Positions 1 to 8,910 of a stretch of 49,798 nt of DNA are shown piece by piece. Source of the DNA: a virus (Duplodnaviria; Heunggongvirae; Uroviricota; Caudoviricetes); the IMG/VR virus record IMGVR_UViG_2568526473_000003. One strand, given 5' to 3'. The position numbers and the translations under genes were made by a program. Below the pieces are notes generated by a model. It made no database searches, was not told where the DNA came from, and saw nothing but the letters and a program-made list of their open reading frames with translations. Positions within the stretch are counted from its first letter, which is position 1, and each line of letters starts with the position of its first letter.

Positions 1-1284
1 TTACTTCTTCGCCTCTGCAACCACTTTGCTACCCACGCCGCGGTTATTGTATTCCCACATGCGGTTGTAGTTAGTGTCATTCAGATTGCGCTGTATTTCG
101 TCGCTATCGTCAACGCTGCCGGTGTTACCCGCAAACGGACGATTAGAGATCACCGCATCGCCCCACGGTTTAGCCGTGTTAAAACCTTCGTTGATGGCGC
201 TATCACGGATCACCACCTGACCGTTGGTATTGGCATCAACATCCAGCGAGCGGCCCAGTTGTGCCACGCCATCACCGGAAGCATTGAAACGGCTGTTTAC
301 GGCGAGGAAACCGTAGTAAATGTTGGACAGCGTAGCCGGTGCAAACACATACGCTTCTTGCTGAGTACGTGAGTTCACCACGCGGAATTCGGTGTTATCG
401 AACACCACTGCGCCGCGACCAGAAACGATATCCACATCCCCTTCAATGTAGCTGTTGGTCACCAGCGTACGCGGCTGACGATTCGTTTCCAGACGGTTCT
501 GCACACCGCTGTTGGTGACAAAGAAGGTGTTCTGACGACCGAGAATGTTAACGTTGTTAATCTGTACCTGGTCACCGTCAGTACGCAGTGCCACCGCCGG
601 ATGGTTACCCGCATCTACGCTATCACCCAGCGTGTTTTCGATGGTCAGGTTTTGCAGTTGCAGGCCATTGTTTTGTGACCAGAAGACCGCAGAACACAGA
701 ACACCGATACTGTCGCTGCGTTTGCTCTGGCAGCTATCGTACATATACCACGCTGGTTTACCTGGCATATATTTGCCGCGCGGGTTGACGTCGTGACGCC
801 AGTCGGCAGGACTCATGCCCCCATCAAGGGAAAGCCCAATCTTCACATCAATCGGTTTTTCACCTGTACCGTACAGAGTAATTCCACCTGGAGCAGCAGG
901 GACATACACCGTTCCCTGATACTCACCAGGCATCACGGCAATATACTGGCGCTTGTTGGTGCGCTTGATAATTGCCGCATCTACCGCCGCCTGAATCGTG
1001 GTATGCGTTACACCTTGAGTACCCGCCGGGCCGACAACAAAGTCAGGTTGCGCAGGCAGGGTTATCGGGGACGGATTCCACGCTGCAGCACCTGGTGTCA
1101 GGGATGCAAAATAGTGTTGAGCATCGAAATTCTGCGCTTCTTTTGCCGACAGAATCGGGCGAGAAGAGGTACCAGGCGCAGTTTGATCAGAAGGACGTTG
1201 ATCGGGTGGTGTTGAGCTACAGGCGGTCAGCGTCACGCCAAAAGCCAATGCCAGCGCCAGACGGGAAACTGAAAATGTGTTCAC
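1..1284 (-). CDS. ybhC: Host outer-membrane lipoprotein YbhC (pectinesterase-like), complete 427 aa
   Basis: 427-aa ORF with lipoprotein signal (LTACSS) matching recalled E. coli YbhC, the gene flanking attB-lambda. Confidence 0.8.
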   Translation of the reverse strand: MNTFSVSRLALALAFGVTLTACSSTPPDQRPSDQTAPGTSSRPILSAKEAQNFDAQHYFASLTPGAAAWNPSPITLPAQPDFVVGPAGTQGVTHTTIQAAVDAAIIKRTNKRQYIAVMPGEYQGTVYVPAAPGGITLYGTGEKPIDVKIGLSLDGGMSPADWRHDVNPRGKYMPGKPAWYMYDSCQSKRSDSIGVLCSAVFWSQNNGLQLQNLTIENTLGDSVDAGNHPAVALRTDGDQVQINNVNILGRQNTFFVTNSGVQNRLETNRQPRTLVTNSYIEGDVDIVSGRGAVVFDNTEFRVVNSRTQQEAYVFAPATLSNIYYGFLAVNSRFNASGDGVAQLGRSLDVDANTNGQVVIRDSAINEGFNTAKPWGDAVISNRPFAGNTGSVDDSDEIQRNLNDTNYNRMWEYNNRGVGSKVVAEAKK

Positions 1285-2489: not shown

Positions 2490-2685
2490 TTCTGATCCTC
2501 TTCAAAAGGCTACCTGTTACTGGTCGATTTAAGTCAACCTTTACCGCTGATTCGTGGAACAGATACTCTCTTCCATCCTTAACCGGAGGAGGGAATATCC
2601 TGCATTCGCGCACCCATCGACGAACTGTTTCAAGGCTTCTTGGGCGTCGCTGGCGTGCGTTCCACTCCTGAAGTGTCAAGTACAT
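2467..2685 (-). CDS. xis: Excisionase, 72 aa
   Basis: Translation MYLTLQEWNARQRRPRSLETVRRWVRECRIFPPP... matches lambda Xis; overlaps the int start as in lambda. Confidence 0.9.
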   Translation of the reverse strand: MYLTLQEWNARQRRPRSLETVRRWVRECRIFPPPVKDGREYLFHESAVKVDLNRPVTGSLLKRIRNGKKAKS

Positions 2686-3134
2686 CGCAAAGTCTCCGCA
2701 ATTACACGCAAGAAAAAGCCGCCATCAGGCGGCTTGGTGTTCTTTCAGTTCTTCAATTCGAATATTGGTTATGTCTGCATGTGCTATCTGCGCCCATATC
2801 ATCCAGTGGTCATAGCAGTCATTGATGTTCTCTGCTTCGATAACTCTGTTGAATGGTTCTCCATTCCATTCACCTGTGACTCGGAAGTGCATTTATCATC
2901 TCCATAAAACAAAACCCGCCGTAGCGAGTTCAGATAAAAGAAATCCTCGTCAGTGCGAGGATGCTGTTCATTGCTGCTATACACTTTTTTGCTCTCAACG
3001 TAAGCGGTAGCTCATTCTGTTGGGTTGGTGCAGTTGCTTTTAGGAAATGCTATTTACCCCTTAAACGTCGGCTGAAAGAGCTAAAATCCATGCAAAAAAT
3101 TTACGCAATTTTGTGTATTATTGTGCAGTAAGTA

Positions 3135-3737
3135 ATGAGCTATTTTCTGCGCAAAAAATGGATGGTAAATTTGTCCGGGGCAGGAAAAATTTTATGGGCG
3201 CTAAACATGAAAAAAGATTCGTATCCTTATTTGATTTGCATGACAGTTTCAGGCCTGATCTTTATTTTCCTTTTCTTCTGGTGGCGGGCAGATATTTACA
3301 GGGTCACGTTTCTTAATCAGAGTATATCCCACTATTACATTCTGTTTAGCATGGGAATAGCTTTTCTGTTATCTCTGTTTTGGGTTAAGAAGGGGATAGT
3401 AAAACAAAGCGGCTGGAAGAGTCTGTCAGCATACCTTAAGGTTTATGCAGGGATGTGCATATTTGCTGGATTTTTTCTGATTATACCCCTTACAACACTA
3501 ACTTATTTTTTGCCTGGAGAGACATCGTCTTATGTTGCACCGTATCGGTATACTTCCGGTAGTTCAAAAAGTTGTTCTGGAGCTGAGGTGGATGACCCCG
3601 ATCTACATGAGAATATTCGCATTTGCTATCCGTATGGCAATTATGAGTACGATAATATTATCTATGTTGAAAAGAAAATTAATACATTAGGTGCGGTAGT
3701 AACATATGCACAGACCGCGCGTGATGATACTGAATGA
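3135..3737 (+). CDS. Hypothetical membrane protein (about 3 TM helices plus Cys-containing C-terminal domain); AT-rich moron antisense to the pL operon; start uncertain (3135, 3162 or 3204)
   Basis: 200-aa ORF with hydrophobic segments (LICMTVSGLIFIFLFFWW, YYILFSMGIAFLLSLFWV, VYAGMCIFAGFFLIIPLTTL); low GC; occupies the slot of lambda ea8.5/ea22 but on the opposite strand. Confidence 0.5.
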   Translation: MSYFLRKKWMVNLSGAGKILWALNMKKDSYPYLICMTVSGLIFIFLFFWWRADIYRVTFLNQSISHYYILFSMGIAFLLSLFWVKKGIVKQSGWKSLSAYLKVYAGMCIFAGFFLIIPLTTLTYFLPGETSSYVAPYRYTSGSSKSCSGAEVDDPDLHENIRICYPYGNYEYDNIIYVEKKINTLGAVVTYAQTARDDTE

Positions 3738-3772
3738 GATAGTATATAGCGGGCAAGTTTTAGTTAATTTAT

Positions 3773-3794
3773 CGAGGTAATATAATTTACCTCG
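3773..3794 (+). terminator. Perfect hairpin (cgaggtaa-tataat-ttacctcg) downstream of the plus-strand membrane-protein gene
   Basis: 8-bp perfect inverted repeat with 6-nt loop 36 nt after the stop at 3737, followed by a T-rich run. Confidence 0.4.
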
Positions 3795-3947
3795 ACTCGT
3801 TTATTCTGGTATTAATATTTCGCTTTACGATCGATTTTTATCTGATGATATCATTCGGTTTTCATATACTGACTTACTGTCTTTTCTCCGTTAGCGATTT
3901 TCTCCTGCTCAGCGATGATTTTATCTTTGGCTTCTAGTTAATTTCGC

Positions 3948-4169
3948 TCACTTCGAACCTCTCTGTTTACTGATAAGTTCCAGATCCTCCTGGCAACTTG
4001 CACAAGTCCGACAACCCTGAACGGCCAGGCGTCTTCGCTCATCTATGGGATCGCCACACTCACAACAATGAGTGGCAGATATAGCCTGGTGGTTCAGGCG
4101 GCGCATTTTTATTGCTGTGTTGCGCTGTAATTCTTCAATTTCTGATGCTGAATCAATGATGTCTGCCAT
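3948..4169 (-). CDS. TraR/DksA-family C4 zinc-finger protein, 73 aa
   Basis: Paired CxxC motifs (CCEC ... CRTCASC) in a small acidic protein; typical phage TraR-like fold. Confidence 0.65.
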   Translation of the reverse strand: MADIIDSASEIEELQRNTAIKMRRLNHQAISATHCCECGDPIDERRRLAVQGCRTCASCQEDLELISKQRGSK

Positions 4170-4267
4170 CTTCCATTAATCCCTGAATTGTTGGTTAATA
4201 CGCTTGAGGGTGAATGCGAACAATAAAAAAGGAGCCTGTAGCTCCCTGATGATTTTGCTTTTCATGC

Positions 4268-4549
4268 TCACCGTTCCTTAAAGACGCCGTTTAACATGCC
4301 GATCGCCAGGCTTAAATGAGTCGGTGTGAATCCCATCAGCGTTACCGTTTCGCGGTGCTTCTTCAGTACGCTACGGCAAATGTCATCGACGTTTTTATCC
4401 GGAAACTGCTGTCTGGCTTTTTTGATTTCAGAATTAGCCTGACGGGCAATACTGCGAAGGGCGTTTTCTTGCTGAGGTGTCATTGAACAAGTCCCATGTC
4501 GGCAAGCATAAGCACACAGAATATGAAGCCCGCTGCCAGAAAAATGCAT
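4268..4549 (-). CDS. Hypothetical early-left protein, 93 aa (non-lambda)
   Basis: ORF starts 11 nt after the orf63 stop (translational coupling geometry) and is co-oriented with the pL operon; no recognised homolog. Confidence 0.5.
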   Translation of the reverse strand: MHFSGSGLHILCAYACRHGTCSMTPQQENALRSIARQANSEIKKARQQFPDKNVDDICRSVLKKHRETVTLMGFTPTHLSLAIGMLNGVFKER

Positions 4550-4751: not shown

Positions 4752-4906
4752 ATCGCCTCCCGTTTATTATTTATCTCCTCAGCCAGCCGCTGGGCTTTCA
4801 GTGGATTTTGGATAACAGAAAGGCCGGGAAATACCCAGCCTCGCTTTGTAACGGAGTAGACGAAAGTGATCGCACCTACCCGGATATTATCGTGAGGATG
4901 CGTCAT
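4724..4906 (-). CDS. Lambda orf60a-like early protein, 60 aa
   Basis: 183-nt ORF with 4-nt ATGA overlap with the exo stop, as in lambda; assignment by synteny and size. Confidence 0.5.
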
Positions 4907-5583
4907 CGCCATTGCTCCCCAAATACAAAACCAATTTCAGCCAGTGCCTCGTCCATTTTTTCGATGAACTCCGGCACCATCTCGTCAAAACTCGCCATGT
5001 AATTTTCATCCCGCTCAACCACGACATAATGCAGGCCTTCACGCTTCATTCGTGGGTCATAGTTGGCAAAGTACCAGGCATCTTTTCGCGTCACCCATAT
5101 GCTGTACTGCACCTGGGCCATGTAAGCCGACTTTATGGCCTCGAAACCACCGAGCCGGAATTTCATGAAATCCCGGGAGGTAAACGGGCATTTCAGTTCA
5201 AGGCCGTTGCCGTCACTGCATAAACCATCGGGAGAGCAGGCGGTGCGCATACTTTCGTCGCGATAGATGATCGGGGATTCAGTAACATTCACGCCGGAAG
5301 TGAATTCAAACAGGGTTCTGGCGTCGTTCTCGTACTGTTTTCCCCAGGCCAGCGCCTTAGCATTAACTTCCGGAGCCACACCGGTGCAAACCTCAGCCAG
5401 CAGGGTGTGGAAGTAGGACATTTTCATGTCAGGCCACTTCTTTCCTGAGCGGAGCTTTGCTATCACGTTGTGAACTTCTGAAGCGGTGATGACGCCGAGC
5501 CGTAATTTGTGCCATGCATCATCCCCCTGTTCGACAGCTCTCACGTCGATCCCGGTACGCTGCAGGATAATGTCCGGTGTCAT
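4903..5583 (-). CDS. exo: Lambda exonuclease (Red-alpha), 226 aa
   Basis: Translation [43 protein letters not shown]... matches lambda Exo. Confidence 0.97.
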
Positions 5584-6365
5584 GCTGCCACCTTCTGCTC
5601 AGTGGCTTTCTGTTTCAGGAATCCAAGAGCTTTCACTGCTTCGGCCTGTGTCAGTTCTGACGATGCGCGAATGTCGCGGCGAAATATCTGGGAACAGAGC
5701 GGCAATAAGTCGTCATCCCATGTTTTATCCAGGGCGATTAGCAGAGTGTTAATCTCCTGCATGGTTTCATCGTTAACCGGAGTGATGTCGCGTTCCGGCT
5801 GGCGTTCTGCAGTGTATGCAGTATTTTCGACAATGCGCTCGGCTTCATCCTTGTCATAGATACCAGCAAATCCGAAGGCCAGACGGGCACACTGAATCAT
5901 AGCTTTATGCCGTAACATCCGTTTGGGATGCGACTGCCACGGCCCCGTGATTTCTCTGCCTTCGCGGGTTTTGAATGGTTCGCGGCGGCATTCATCCATC
6001 CATTCGGTAACGCAGATCGGATGATTACGGTCCTTGCGGTAAATCCGGCATGTACAGGATTCATTGTCCTGCTCAAAGTCCATGCCATCAAACTGCTGGT
6101 TTTCATTGATGATGCGGGACCAGCCATCAACGCCCACCACCGGAACGATGCCGTTCTGCTTATCAGGGAAGGCGTAAATTTCTTTCGTCCACGGATTAAG
6201 GCCGTACTGGTTGGCGACGATCAACAATGCGATGAACTGCGCATCGCTGGCATCGCCTTTAAATGCCGTCTGGCGAAGAGTGGTGATCAGTTCCTGTGGG
6301 TCGACAGAATCCATGCCGACACGTTCAGCCAGCTTCCCTGCCAGCGTTGCGAGTGCTGTACTCAT
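5580..6365 (-). CDS. bet: Recombination protein Bet (Red-beta), 261 aa
   Basis: Translation [59 protein letters not shown]... matches lambda Beta. Confidence 0.97.
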
Positions 6366-8425: not shown

Positions 8426-8752
8426 TCAAATAAGTGGTTTGCTGCCTAATTTCATTTTCTGTCGACCAACACAAGTCACACCCATTTCACTGCGTGGCTT
8501 GCTGTACCATGTGCGCTGATTCTTGCGCTCAATACGCTGCAGGTTGCTTTCAATCTGTTCGTGGTATTCAGCCAGCACCGTAAGGTCTATCGGATTCAGT
8601 GCGCTTTCTACTCGTGATTTCGGTTTGCGATTCAGCGAGAGAATAGGGCGGTTAACTGGCTTTGCGCTTACCCCAACCAACAGGGGATTTGCTGCTTTCC
8701 ATTGAGCCTGTTTCTCTGCGCGACGTTCGCGGCGGCGTGTTTGTGCATCCAT
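8426..8752 (-). CDS. N: Antiterminator N, 108 aa from the MDAQTRRRERR start
   Basis: Translation MDAQTRRRERRAEKQAQWKAANPLLVGVSAKPVNRPILSLNRKPKSRVESALNPIDLTVLAEYHEQIESNLQRIERKNQRTWYSKP... matches lambda N (divergent extreme C-terminus). Confidence 0.9.
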   Translation of the reverse strand: MDAQTRRRERRAEKQAQWKAANPLLVGVSAKPVNRPILSLNRKPKSRVESALNPIDLTVLAEYHEQIESNLQRIERKNQRTWYSKPRSEMGVTCVGRQKMKLGSKPLI

Positions 8753-8910
8753 CTGGATTCTCCTGTCAGTTAGCTTTGGTTGTGTGTGGGAGTCGTAGTC
8801 CTGAACGAAAACACCCCCGCAATGGCACATTGGCAGCTAATCCGGATTCGCACTTCCGGCCAATGCTTCGTTTCGTATCACACACACCAAAGCTTTCTGC
8901 TTTGAATGCT

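Follow-up and report, generated by a model that had tools for sequence, protein, structure and literature searches.

A mobile cassette common to lambdoid and P2-like prophages carries a conserved gene for a predicted inner-membrane protein, antisense to the early-left operon

Lambdoid morons, for example lambda bor and lom or HK97 gp15, are promoter-gene-terminator units. The sieA gene of P22-like phages lies between genes 16 and 9, is oriented opposite to its neighbours in the prophage and has its own promoter; its product of 162 to 164 aa has three predicted transmembrane (TM) helices and a conserved C-terminal motif, FxRYPxEAxxFNK, which is predicted to be cytoplasmic (PMC10883804). A further point of reference is the old/tin hotspot of P2-like prophages, i.e., the interval between the portal gene gpQ and the replication gene gpA, where anti-phage systems have been demonstrated by experiment and which also holds cargo unrelated to defence, for instance partition systems and cytolethal distending toxin (PMC9122126). 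Table S5B of the same study (Rousset et al. 2022) lists system 4 of this hotspot as '3 TM', with 470 occurrences and with neither a name nor a domain (PMC9122126). Here we analysed a gene of this type at a different location, in a 49,798-nucleotide stretch of Caudoviricetes DNA (IMG/VR record IMGVR_UViG_2568526473_000003), referred to below as the window.

The gene lies in a plus-strand open reading frame (ORF) at 3135-3737 (200 aa), between xis and ORF55 on one side and a TraR-like gene, exo, and bet on the other. As an earlier note on this DNA had claimed, it runs opposite to all its neighbours, every one of which is on the minus strand: int (1419-2489), xis (2467-2685), ORF55 (2725-2892), the TraR-like gene (3948-4169), homologues of orf63 and orf60a that come in order before exo, then exo itself (4903-5583), bet (5580-6365), and a lambda-N-like gene (8426-8830). 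The claims that it is set against the pL operon and that it occupies the place of lambda ea8.5/ea22 also held: the N-like gene and gam/bet/exo all read towards it, and the interval corresponds to ea8.5/ea22/orf61 of lambda because the orf63, orf60a, and exo homologues come next. The gene is likewise AT-rich, with a GC content of 38.8% versus 49.8% for the window, and it deviates in base composition from the flanking phage genes (45 to 52% GC: int, 45%; xis, 49%; exo and bet, 52%).

Comparison with P2-like prophages revealed the extent of the unit to which the gene belongs. In blastn searches, window positions 3070-3844 matched the E. coli P2-like prophage L018 with 76% identity (E = 2e-160), with a further match at 3039-3074, and positions 3074-3705 matched the Salmonella P2-like prophage L012 with 70.6% identity. 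Flanks of about 170 bp before and about 110 bp after the coding sequence are thus conserved together with it in the E. coli P2-like prophage, defining a mobile cassette of ∼800 bp (3039-3844, plus strand) that comprises an upstream block, the coding sequence, and a hairpin. The left edge of the variable interval is formed by tL4, the terminator of the pL transcript (2943-2962, minus strand), which is annotated as t-L4 in M60848, was terminator-like in our scan, and closely follows the cassette when the DNA is read in the direction of pL transcription; homology with Stx and P22-like phages stops at about 2989. On the right, 3845-3947 is probably what remains of the 3' end of a gene that neighboured the cassette on the minus strand and was transferred with it. 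No intact minus-strand ORF was found in this segment, and positions 3894-3937 match L018 positions 5713-5756 with 77% identity, inside a minus-strand ORF of that prophage. A 56-aa ORF at 2961-3131, annotated as a 'putative membrane protein' in phage 434 (CPT_434_35), is probably not a gene; it overlaps both the tL4 terminator and the repeat/promoter block and is split by a large insertion in L018. The window lacks ORF114 of phage 434.

We asked whether the gene itself could be spurious, a frame open only by chance in an AT-rich intergenic region, as the lack of a Pfam or NCBIfam family and the different frame given in the earlier entry M60848 ('ORF-22+') might suggest. The probability of this is negligible, and the idea is refuted by conservation and codon-level selection: dN/dS is about 0.1 (0.08 to 0.14 against the P2-borne copies), the AlphaFold2 (AF2) model is confident, and the homologues span at least six genera of enterobacteria. 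About 74 related clusters were found, with identity down to 42% and invariant motifs, and a search of 1.8 billion proteins returned 61 representative clusters. The gene, which the earlier note had taken to be genuinely protein coding, is real, strongly conserved, and uncharacterised.

Its start had to be revised. The 200-aa ORF named in the earlier note exists, but its start is 24 codons too early, and the true protein has 176 aa, beginning at ATG 3207 (coding sequence with stop, 3207-3737). In an alignment of 18 sequences, all relatives start at the residue aligned with M25 (ATG 3207), except for two that carry unrelated N-terminal extensions. In L018, the closest P2-borne copy, the frame of the extension is ended by a stop codon. 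The 5' extension of the ORF (3135-3206) is noncoding and outside the protein; it contains the conserved promoter-like block and would serve as promoter and leader. We place the start at ATG 3207 on the strength of conservation, which extends to this codon itself, to a Shine-Dalgarno-like motif, and to the promoter predicted below. Existing annotations differ, using TTG at window position 3171 (phage 434), ATG 3135 (RefSeq), or, in a few records, ATG 3207; the gene appears under the names CPT_434_36 (phage 434, OL657226), ECs_0804 (O157:H7 Sakai), and WP_000120056 (RefSeq).

The earlier note had expected the gene to have its own promoter, and a promoter-like block conserved in the phage-borne copies does indeed lie upstream. 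We predict from this conservation a sigma-70 promoter at 3143-3171 (plus strand), with a weak -35 element, TTTTCT (3143-3148), a 17-nt spacer that includes the TG of an extended -10 element (3163-3164), the -10 element TAAATT (3166-3171), and a start near 3178. The pattern TTTTC...AAAA...TG(G/A)TAA(A/T)TT is kept in the 434-type copy, the P2-borne copies of E. coli and Salmonella, and the Citrobacter copy. The -35 element is poor, and a simple two-hexamer consensus scan did not report this block. Further downstream, a Shine-Dalgarno-like GGGCG (3196-3200) precedes ATG 3207 by 6 nt, and GGGCG, GGGGC, or GGAGT is conserved at this site in the aligned upstream regions.

Upstream of the predicted promoter, at about -50 to -78 relative to the predicted transcription start, lie three direct repeats phased by 10 bp (3100-3129, plus strand), TTTACGCAAT, TTTGTGTATT, and ATTGTGCAGT, which are degenerate copies of ATTGTGCA. 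The repeats are perfect, triple, and spaced by 10 bp in the Salmonella prophage L012 (4894-4926), and the E. coli prophage L018 also has them. Within the window array, TTGT-N6-TTGT at 3111-3124, with AGCTAT 13 nt downstream, is labelled in the phage 434 annotation as a CII box (TTGY-N6-TTGY). CII-dependent promoters (lambda pRE, pI, and paQ) have TTGC-N6-TTGC across the -35 region and a weak -10 element about 13 nt downstream. CII is nevertheless disfavoured as the cognate factor, because the repeats form a triple array that is best conserved in P2-like prophages, and we know of no CII-type activator encoded by such prophages. To our knowledge, none of the sites for CII, OmpR, PhoB, PhoP, CpxR, TorR, DnaA, PurR, MlrA, P2 Cox, or lambda Xis, nor the 434 operator, fits ATTGTGCA in both sequence and geometry.

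The annotated box bears on the idea that the cassette matters chiefly as a regulatory transcript, a CII-activated (paQ-like) or constitutive antisense RNA directed against pL read-through into xis and int, with the protein being secondary. Transcription from the cassette would indeed converge on pL transcription. Nonetheless, we consider this very improbable, given that the boxes read TTGT rather than TTGC, that by a rough estimate about six matches to such a box are expected by chance in 2 × 48 kb, that the repeats are best preserved outside the lambdoid context, in P2-like prophages, and that the protein is under strong purifying selection. Moreover, the cassette is kept in the Sp3 prophage, whose annotation lists no immunity-region genes over the part that was examined.

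After the coding sequence, a hairpin is present as the earlier note had described, but with a stem of 9 rather than 8 bp and a span of 3772-3795 rather than 3773-3794 (plus strand; 6-nt loop). This terminator-like structure has a predicted folding energy of -12.9 kcal/mol (z = -3.0 relative to shuffled sequences, 3 of 200 of which fold equally well) and is followed by a weak U-tract, CUCGUUUAUU. In the alignment, L018 keeps this hairpin, altered by a single compensatory change of an A-T to a G-C pair, one G-U pair, and one mismatch. A search of positions 2600-4300 against Rfam returned no RNA family. By its sequence, the block common to the window and L018 includes a predicted downstream terminator of the kind expected of a moron.

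The product agrees with the earlier description of about three TM helices and a Cys-containing soluble tail: both the AF2 model and a hydropathy analysis give three hydrophobic segments free of charged residues, and the soluble domain at the C terminus contains two Cys residues. The AF2 model (pLDDT of 86.3 over its whole length, and of 90 when the C-terminal domain is taken alone) contains helices at residues 5-29, 38-61, and 70-101 and five strands within 105-171, so that the C-terminal domain is predicted to be a five-stranded beta-barrel of ∼70 residues. Net charges of +3.6 for the TM2-TM3 loop, +1.3 for the N-terminal tail, and -1.4 for the C-terminal domain, with uncharged TM segments, suggest an N-in/C-out topology. 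We thus predict an inner-membrane protein with a cytoplasmic N terminus and lysine-rich TM2-TM3 loop and with the TM1-TM2 loop and the beta-barrel in the periplasm. The Cys pair, Cys123/Cys140 in the 176-aa protein (C147/C164 in the 200-aa numbering), is invariant in 21 of 21 full-length relatives and probably forms a disulfide. The family alignment further shows the conserved C-terminal motifs CSGA and I(R/K)ICYPxGxY.

Searches for known relatives of the protein yielded little beyond PHROG 1416, a family of unknown function (E = 2.1e-50; residues 113-200 of the 200-aa translation against positions 1-88 of the 90-position profile), whose profile spans the C-terminal half only. Pfam gave DUF6057 at an E value of only 0.25 and NCBIfam no match; none of the defence families of PADLOC-DB v2 was hit at E values up to 1; a search of PDB sequences with the family profile gave nothing below an E value of 0.2; and Foldseek found no significant match among the viral models of BFVD. 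We also considered a short NfeD-like protein, with TM helices and a C-terminal OB barrel (PF01957), and rejected it, as there was neither a Pfam NfeD match nor a structural match to the NfeD C-terminal domain. P22 SieA resembles the window protein in size (162 to 164 versus 176 aa), in its three predicted TM helices, and in being encoded opposite to its prophage neighbours from its own promoter, which in the window is a predicted one; the two differ in predicted topology, the C-terminal motif of SieA being assigned to the cytoplasm (PMC10883804) and the C-terminal domain of the window protein to the periplasm. When the family profile was compared with P22 SieA by hhalign, homology was rejected (probability, 0.1%; E = 0.49), and FxRYPxEAxxFNK is absent from the alignment of the window family.

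Homologues with 52 to 78% identity were found in P2-like prophages of E. coli, Salmonella (two alleles), Klebsiella, and Enterobacter (loci L011-L018, L022-L024, and L027). They lie between gpQ and gpA and in each case converge with the gpA operon; the Klebsiella copy adjoins a gene for a 790-aa AAA_16 NTPase. The system 4 protein of Table S5B belongs to the same family, with 52% identity over 168 aa in BLASTP (E = 3e-57) and with the 3-TM part and the Cys-pair C-terminal domain in both. Closer alleles (58 to 78% identity) occupy the same P2 slot, in contrast to the window copy, which resides in the xis-exo interval of a lambdoid prophage. Rousset et al. 2022 do not have the system 4 sequence among the systems in their table of those evaluated. 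Compared with P2 old and tin, the homologues share the locus, but the window protein is a membrane protein without a nuclease or ATPase domain, and neither the Pfam nor the PADLOC scan indicated a relation to old or tin. Because its homologues sit in the old/tin hotspot, it is reasonable to regard the window gene as an accessory gene, possibly one for exclusion.

Residence in a defence hotspot, the membrane proteins of whose systems are often suicide effectors (PMC9122126), might also point to abortive infection by a single gene, with the 3-TM part disrupting the membrane once infection is sensed and the cell dying before phage release. We regard this as improbable. The protein has no cytoplasmic sensor, its sole soluble domain being predicted to be periplasmic and to carry the conserved Cys pair, and the gene stands alone in several contexts with no conserved partner.

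Among lambdoid phages, the protein is 100% identical over 176 aa in phages 434 and 2B8 and 99.4% identical in mEp332. Of the 214 phage records that matched, all but 5, which cover the interval 2900-3950, share only ∼89 nt at its left edge. The interval is thus present or absent among relatives, since most lambdoid phages share only about its first 89 nt. This presence/absence pattern, the deviant base composition, the promoter-like and terminator-like flanks, and the position between operon genes are features of lambdoid morons; the cassette differs from these in being antisense within the early-left operon, not in the late region, and in being common also to the unrelated P2-like phage family. 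A promoter-like block, a gene, and a terminator-like hairpin that move together between phage types are the layout of a classic moron. In complete E. coli genomes, any match to 2900-3950 was found in 2,214, of which 905 (about one in six of the 5,426 genomes) carry at least 80% of the interval. Carriers include O157:H7 (ECs_0804) and O104:H4 strains. ECs_0804, likened to the window gene by annotation and position, encodes 200 aa on the plus strand and has equivalent surroundings. It is intact in Sp3, a defective prophage of O157:H7 Sakai whose int and bet are pseudogenes and whose annotation shows no immunity or replication genes from bet to the nin-region genes. Literature on OL657226, mEp332, WP_000120056, ECs0804, and follow-ups of the P2 hotspot yielded no functional data, and the phage 434 genome announcement is silent on function.

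Copies were also found outside any recognisable prophage, and these lead to an alternative that we regard as possible, if rather unlikely: that the protein is a host-physiology or lysogenic-conversion factor, an envelope component of chromosomal enterobacterial origin kept for its benefit to the lysogen and not for blocking phages. Such a component might, for instance, modulate envelope stress, signalling, or some process in the periplasm or membrane. Four Enterobacter species have the gene at one conserved chromosomal locus beside a GGDEF gene, and the Klebsiella sp. R390 copy is flanked by a PTS gene on one side and a LysR gene on the other. The Cedecea copy is near a two-component system, MipA, and an AraC-type regulator, and the Citrobacter copy is immediately upstream of rstB. 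The Enterobacter and Klebsiella copies have a host-like GC content (53 to 55%), and these and the Cedecea copy lack the phage-type promoter block. Since chromosomal, non-prophage orthologues with host-like GC content exist, the family does not serve an exclusively phage function, and an ancestral cellular role is suggested. The persistence of an intact gene in the decayed Sp3 prophage and the non-defence cargo of the P2 hotspot would fit the same alternative. On the other side, the phage-borne alleles share the old/tin slot and the orientation in five P2-like lineages, the chromosomal loci show no operon partner or conserved neighbour, and the protein matched no characterised family of envelope proteins in the Pfam, NCBIfam, and PDB searches.

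As the best explanation of the whole, we tentatively propose a self-contained moron that is expressed in the prophage state and excludes superinfecting phages by acting at the envelope. A moron of ∼0.8 kb, made up of three 10-bp-phased repeats, an extended -10 promoter, a 176-aa coding sequence, and a hairpin, would have been inserted into a lambdoid prophage, opposite in direction to its pL early-left operon. With pL silenced by the prophage repressor, the cassette promoter would be free to fire; upon induction or infection, N-antiterminated pL transcription would cross the cassette in antisense and damp its expression. The periplasm-exposed domain would then act at the envelope, most likely against genome entry of superinfecting phages, in a mode that may be likened to those of P22 SieA, T4 Imm, and HK97 gp15, to which the window protein is unrelated in sequence. 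We infer promoter use, expression in the prophage state, and an anti-phage role; action at the cell envelope is probable, and phage exclusion is perhaps its purpose. Possible silencing of AT-rich cargo by H-NS (10.64898/2026.09.05.749240) counts against this proposal, as do the poor -35 element of the predicted promoter, the lack of a match in PADLOC, Pfam, and NCBIfam, the non-defence cargo of the P2 hotspot, and the copies outside prophages.

A more far-reaching version, which we hold to be doubtful, is that the homologues constitute a new family of envelope-acting exclusion proteins, each a disulfide-stabilised periplasmic beta-barrel on a 3-TM anchor. Lambdoid and P2-like prophages would swap the promoter-gene-terminator unit, with a host factor binding the three copies of ATTGTGCA; the cassette would be convergent to the early operons and therefore on in the prophage and off after induction.

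The gene is common, occurring even in the classic phage 434, and a homologue is the fourth most frequent cargo of the P2 defence hotspot (PMC9122126), yet it has had neither a name nor a domain. The cassette clearly illustrates how two unrelated families of temperate phages exchange cargo and, as a single small gene with its own predicted control elements, is amenable to simple cloning. If the protein does act in exclusion, it would add a new protein family to the few exclusion mechanisms at the level of the envelope and would help to explain phage-host range in pathogenic E. coli and Salmonella. If it does not, the gene would be a pointer to a lysogenic-conversion role in envelope physiology.

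The plus-strand ORF at 3135-3737 exists, as the earlier note had it, but its true coding sequence is shorter than the 200 aa proposed there. In an 18-sequence alignment, M25 of the 200-aa ORF marks the position where the relatives begin, apart from two that carry unrelated N-terminal extensions; in the closest P2-borne copy, from an E. coli P2-like prophage (L018), a stop closes the frame upstream of the aligned ATG; and a Shine-Dalgarno motif of the GGGCG/GGAG type is conserved 6-8 nt upstream of ATG 3207. We thus assign the CDS to 3207-3737 (176 aa); public annotations place the start at ATG 3135, TTG 3171 or ATG 3207. When paired with the E. coli and Salmonella P2-borne alleles, the gene gives Nei-Gojobori dN/dS values of 0.08-0.14, which rules out a spurious ORF. 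Among 5.8 billion clustered proteins, 74 related clusters were identified at 42-99% identity; their genera are Escherichia, Shigella, Salmonella, Enterobacter, Klebsiella and Cedecea, to which a scan of loci adds Citrobacter. The family is nonetheless narrow, since an exhaustive profile search gave only 61 representative clusters. As claimed, the gene is AT-rich (38.8% GC versus 49.8% in the window). The old phage 434 entry M60848 annotates a partial plus-strand 'ORF-22+' (L002:2550-2616; window 3194-3260) in a frame that differs from that of the conserved gene; this could stem from single-base errors of older fragment sequences, which the 2022 434 resequencing paper says were corrected.

The window opens within ybhC (1-1284, minus strand) and then runs into the lambdoid prophage. 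int (1419-2489), xis (2467-2685), ORF55 (2725-2892), a TraR-like zinc-finger gene (3948-4169), exo (4903-5583), bet (5580-6365) and a lambda-N-like gene (8426-8830) are all on the minus strand, as are gam and the orf63/orf60a homologues among the early-left genes. ORF 3135-3737 is the sole plus-strand gene in this neighborhood, so its opposite orientation was read correctly, and the proposed antisense passage of pL transcription, which would cross the gene leftwards, agrees with the gene order and with established lambda biology. Between xis and ORF55, a GC-rich bidirectional hairpin (2716-2735) apparently matches the t'I terminator region, and ORF114, which phage 434 carries there, is missing from the window as it is from mEp332 (window 2686-2724 versus L001:2347-2825).

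Phages 434 and 2B8 match the interval 2900-3950 at 99.8-99.9% identity, and mEp332 matches it at 98.8%; elsewhere the window shows mosaic relationships to other lambdoid phages. Most lambdoid phage records, including Stx phages and P22-likes, share only ∼89 nt at its left edge, to roughly 2989, which indicates a present-or-absent module whose left boundary lies at the tL4 terminator (∼2943-2962, minus strand, from M60848), immediately left of the gene. The counterpart in 434, CPT_434_36, is annotated as 'putative membrane protein'. A second such annotation, CPT_434_35, corresponds to a 56-aa ORF at 2961-3131 (plus strand); it overlaps tL4 and the repeat/promoter block, a large insertion breaks it in L018, and it is unlikely to be a gene.

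By blastn, window 3039-3844 (together with 3894-3937) matches L018 at 76% identity, reaching beyond the CDS by ∼170 bp on its 5' side and by at least 110 bp on its 3' side; in the Salmonella P2-like copies the match spans 3074-3705. Three direct repeats in a 10-bp register lie in the shared upstream block (window 3100-3129; L012:4894-4926 in a Salmonella P2-like prophage; L018:4891-4923), followed by a conserved TTTTCTGCGCAAAAAA and, 3' of it, an extended -10 element, TG-g-TAAATT (3163-3171, plus strand). The predicted transcription start, near 3178, falls within the stretch by which the 200-aa ORF is spuriously extended at its 5' end. A simple two-hexamer promoter scan did not report this promoter, so conservation is what supports the prediction. 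The repeats are best kept in the Salmonella P2-like copies; they are perfect in L012 (ATTGTGCA, three times) and degenerate in the window. We know of no regulator site that fits them in both sequence and geometry. The 434 annotators labeled part of the array a CII box, and a primarily antisense-RNA or CII-dependent role could be imagined; this is less likely, as the repeats also persist in P2-like prophages, for which no CII-type activator is known, and as selection acts on the protein.

The hairpin reported downstream of the ORF is present, but with a 9-bp rather than an 8-bp stem and spanning 3772-3795 rather than 3773-3794 (6-nt loop; ΔG, -12.9 kcal/mol; z = -3.0). It is followed by a weak U-tract and is kept in L018 with one compensatory pair. 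To its right, window 3845-3947 (minus strand) resembles the 3' part of a minus-strand ORF adjoining the cassette in L018 (L018:5622-6004); it holds no intact minus-strand ORF and looks like a relic brought along at cassette transfer between phage types. Sequence evidence supports a moron-like reading of this anatomy: base composition deviates, the unit brings its own promoter-like and terminator-like elements, and relatives either carry it or lack it.

About three TM helices and a Cys-containing soluble tail had been proposed, and both recur in the predictions here. An AlphaFold2 model from a 24-sequence alignment (mean pLDDT, 86.3) has three long helices (5-29, 38-61 and 70-101) and a five-stranded beta domain (105-171; pLDDT 90 when modeled alone). 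None of 21 full-length members has K, R, D or E in the three hydrophobic segments, and net charge across them is +3.6 in the TM2-TM3 loop, +1.3 in the N-tail, +1.1 in the TM1-TM2 loop and -1.4 in the C-domain. By the positive-inside rule, this distribution predicts a cytoplasmic N-terminus and loop 2, with loop 1 and the C-terminal barrel periplasmic. Two Cys, C123 and C140 in 176-aa numbering (C147 and C164 in the 200-aa ORF), do not vary and would fit a periplasmic disulfide; the remaining two Cys are not conserved. The family alignment further shows conserved CSGA and I(R/K)ICYPxGxY motifs. The protein has no enzymatic signature, and its sole soluble part is predicted to be periplasmic; an abortive-infection effector is less likely, given the lack of a cytoplasmic sensor. 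P22 SieA (PMC10883804) is similar in size, in number of TM helices and in the way the gene is laid out, but homology was rejected: hhalign probability was 0.1%, the SieA motif is absent from the family, and the C-termini are predicted on opposite sides of the membrane.

In P2-like prophages, homologues from E. coli (78% identity), Salmonella (70% and 58%), Klebsiella michiganensis (55%) and Enterobacter hormaechei (58%) all lie between portal gene Q and replication gene A, convergent with the gpA operon every time. This slot is the old/tin locus, which Rousset et al. (PMC9122126) showed to be a hotspot of anti-phage systems, with partition systems and cytolethal distending toxin among its other cargo. 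System number 4 in Table S5B of that study (no domain, '3 TM', 470 occurrences) shares 52% identity with the window protein (E = 3e-57), and its sequence was not found in the study's table of evaluated systems. In the K. michiganensis hotspot (L022-L024:2281-5623), the homologue is accompanied by a 790-aa AAA_16 NTPase gene and an opposite-strand 279-aa gene, which may form a separate, adjoining defense system.

On this evidence an exclusion or conversion function is plausible. Hotspot residence, together with the absence of an enzymatic signature and the predicted periplasmic soluble part, leads us to favor, tentatively, envelope-level exclusion of incoming phages. The main rival, a function in host envelope physiology or conversion, seems somewhat less likely to us and draws on chromosomal orthologues: four Enterobacter species carry one at a single locus adjoining a GGDEF gene, and copies outside recognizable prophages also occur in Klebsiella sp. 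R390, Cedecea neteri and Citrobacter portucalensis. The Enterobacter and Klebsiella chromosomal copies have 53-55% GC and no phage-type upstream block. In C. portucalensis A60 (L005:5836-8051), the cassette lies directly upstream of rstB, in the expected place of rstA, with no rstA-sized ORF within the 6.5 kb examined; its upstream block is partial, retaining the extended -10 without the ATTGTGCA repeats.

At least 80% of 2900-3950 is present in 905 of 5,426 complete E. coli genomes, O157:H7 and O104:H4 strains among them; in a 50,697-record collection, the only isolated phages with the gene were 434, 2B8 and mEp332. In O157:H7 Sakai it is ECs_0804 of prophage Sp3 (L020, 891124-929709), where int and bet have become pseudogenes and the annotation shows neither immunity nor replication genes from bet to the nin-region genes. 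ECs_0804 is nevertheless intact there, as is lpxR, which encodes a lipid A deacylase; this pattern suggests retention of host-beneficial cargo. A 99%-identical copy on a 3.5-kb Saccharibacteria-assigned 'Candidatus Nanosynbacter' MAG contig (L004, JARKOR010000073.1) is almost certainly a binning contaminant.

In the literature searched, OL657226 was named in the 434 genome announcement only, whose sole relevant remark is that the morons differ from lambda's (PMC9119081); WP_000120056 and ECs0804 were not named, and mEp332 came up in one paper, on quantifying lambdoid phages by qPCR. The family is uncharacterized, yet annotated and cataloged before: prophage cargo encoding a membrane protein, and a real accessory gene that the earlier note spotted correctly. 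In both temperate phage families, which are unrelated to each other, the cassette sits antisense at the distal end of an early operon, and this placement suggests that it would be expressed while the early promoters are repressed and would meet interference after induction. H-NS silencing of AT-rich immunity loci, the topic of a 2026 preprint (10.64898/2026.09.05.749240), would be a caveat to presumed constitutive expression. We consider the finding of moderate interest, mainly since the gene is widespread and readily testable and occurs in pathogens as well as in a classic phage.
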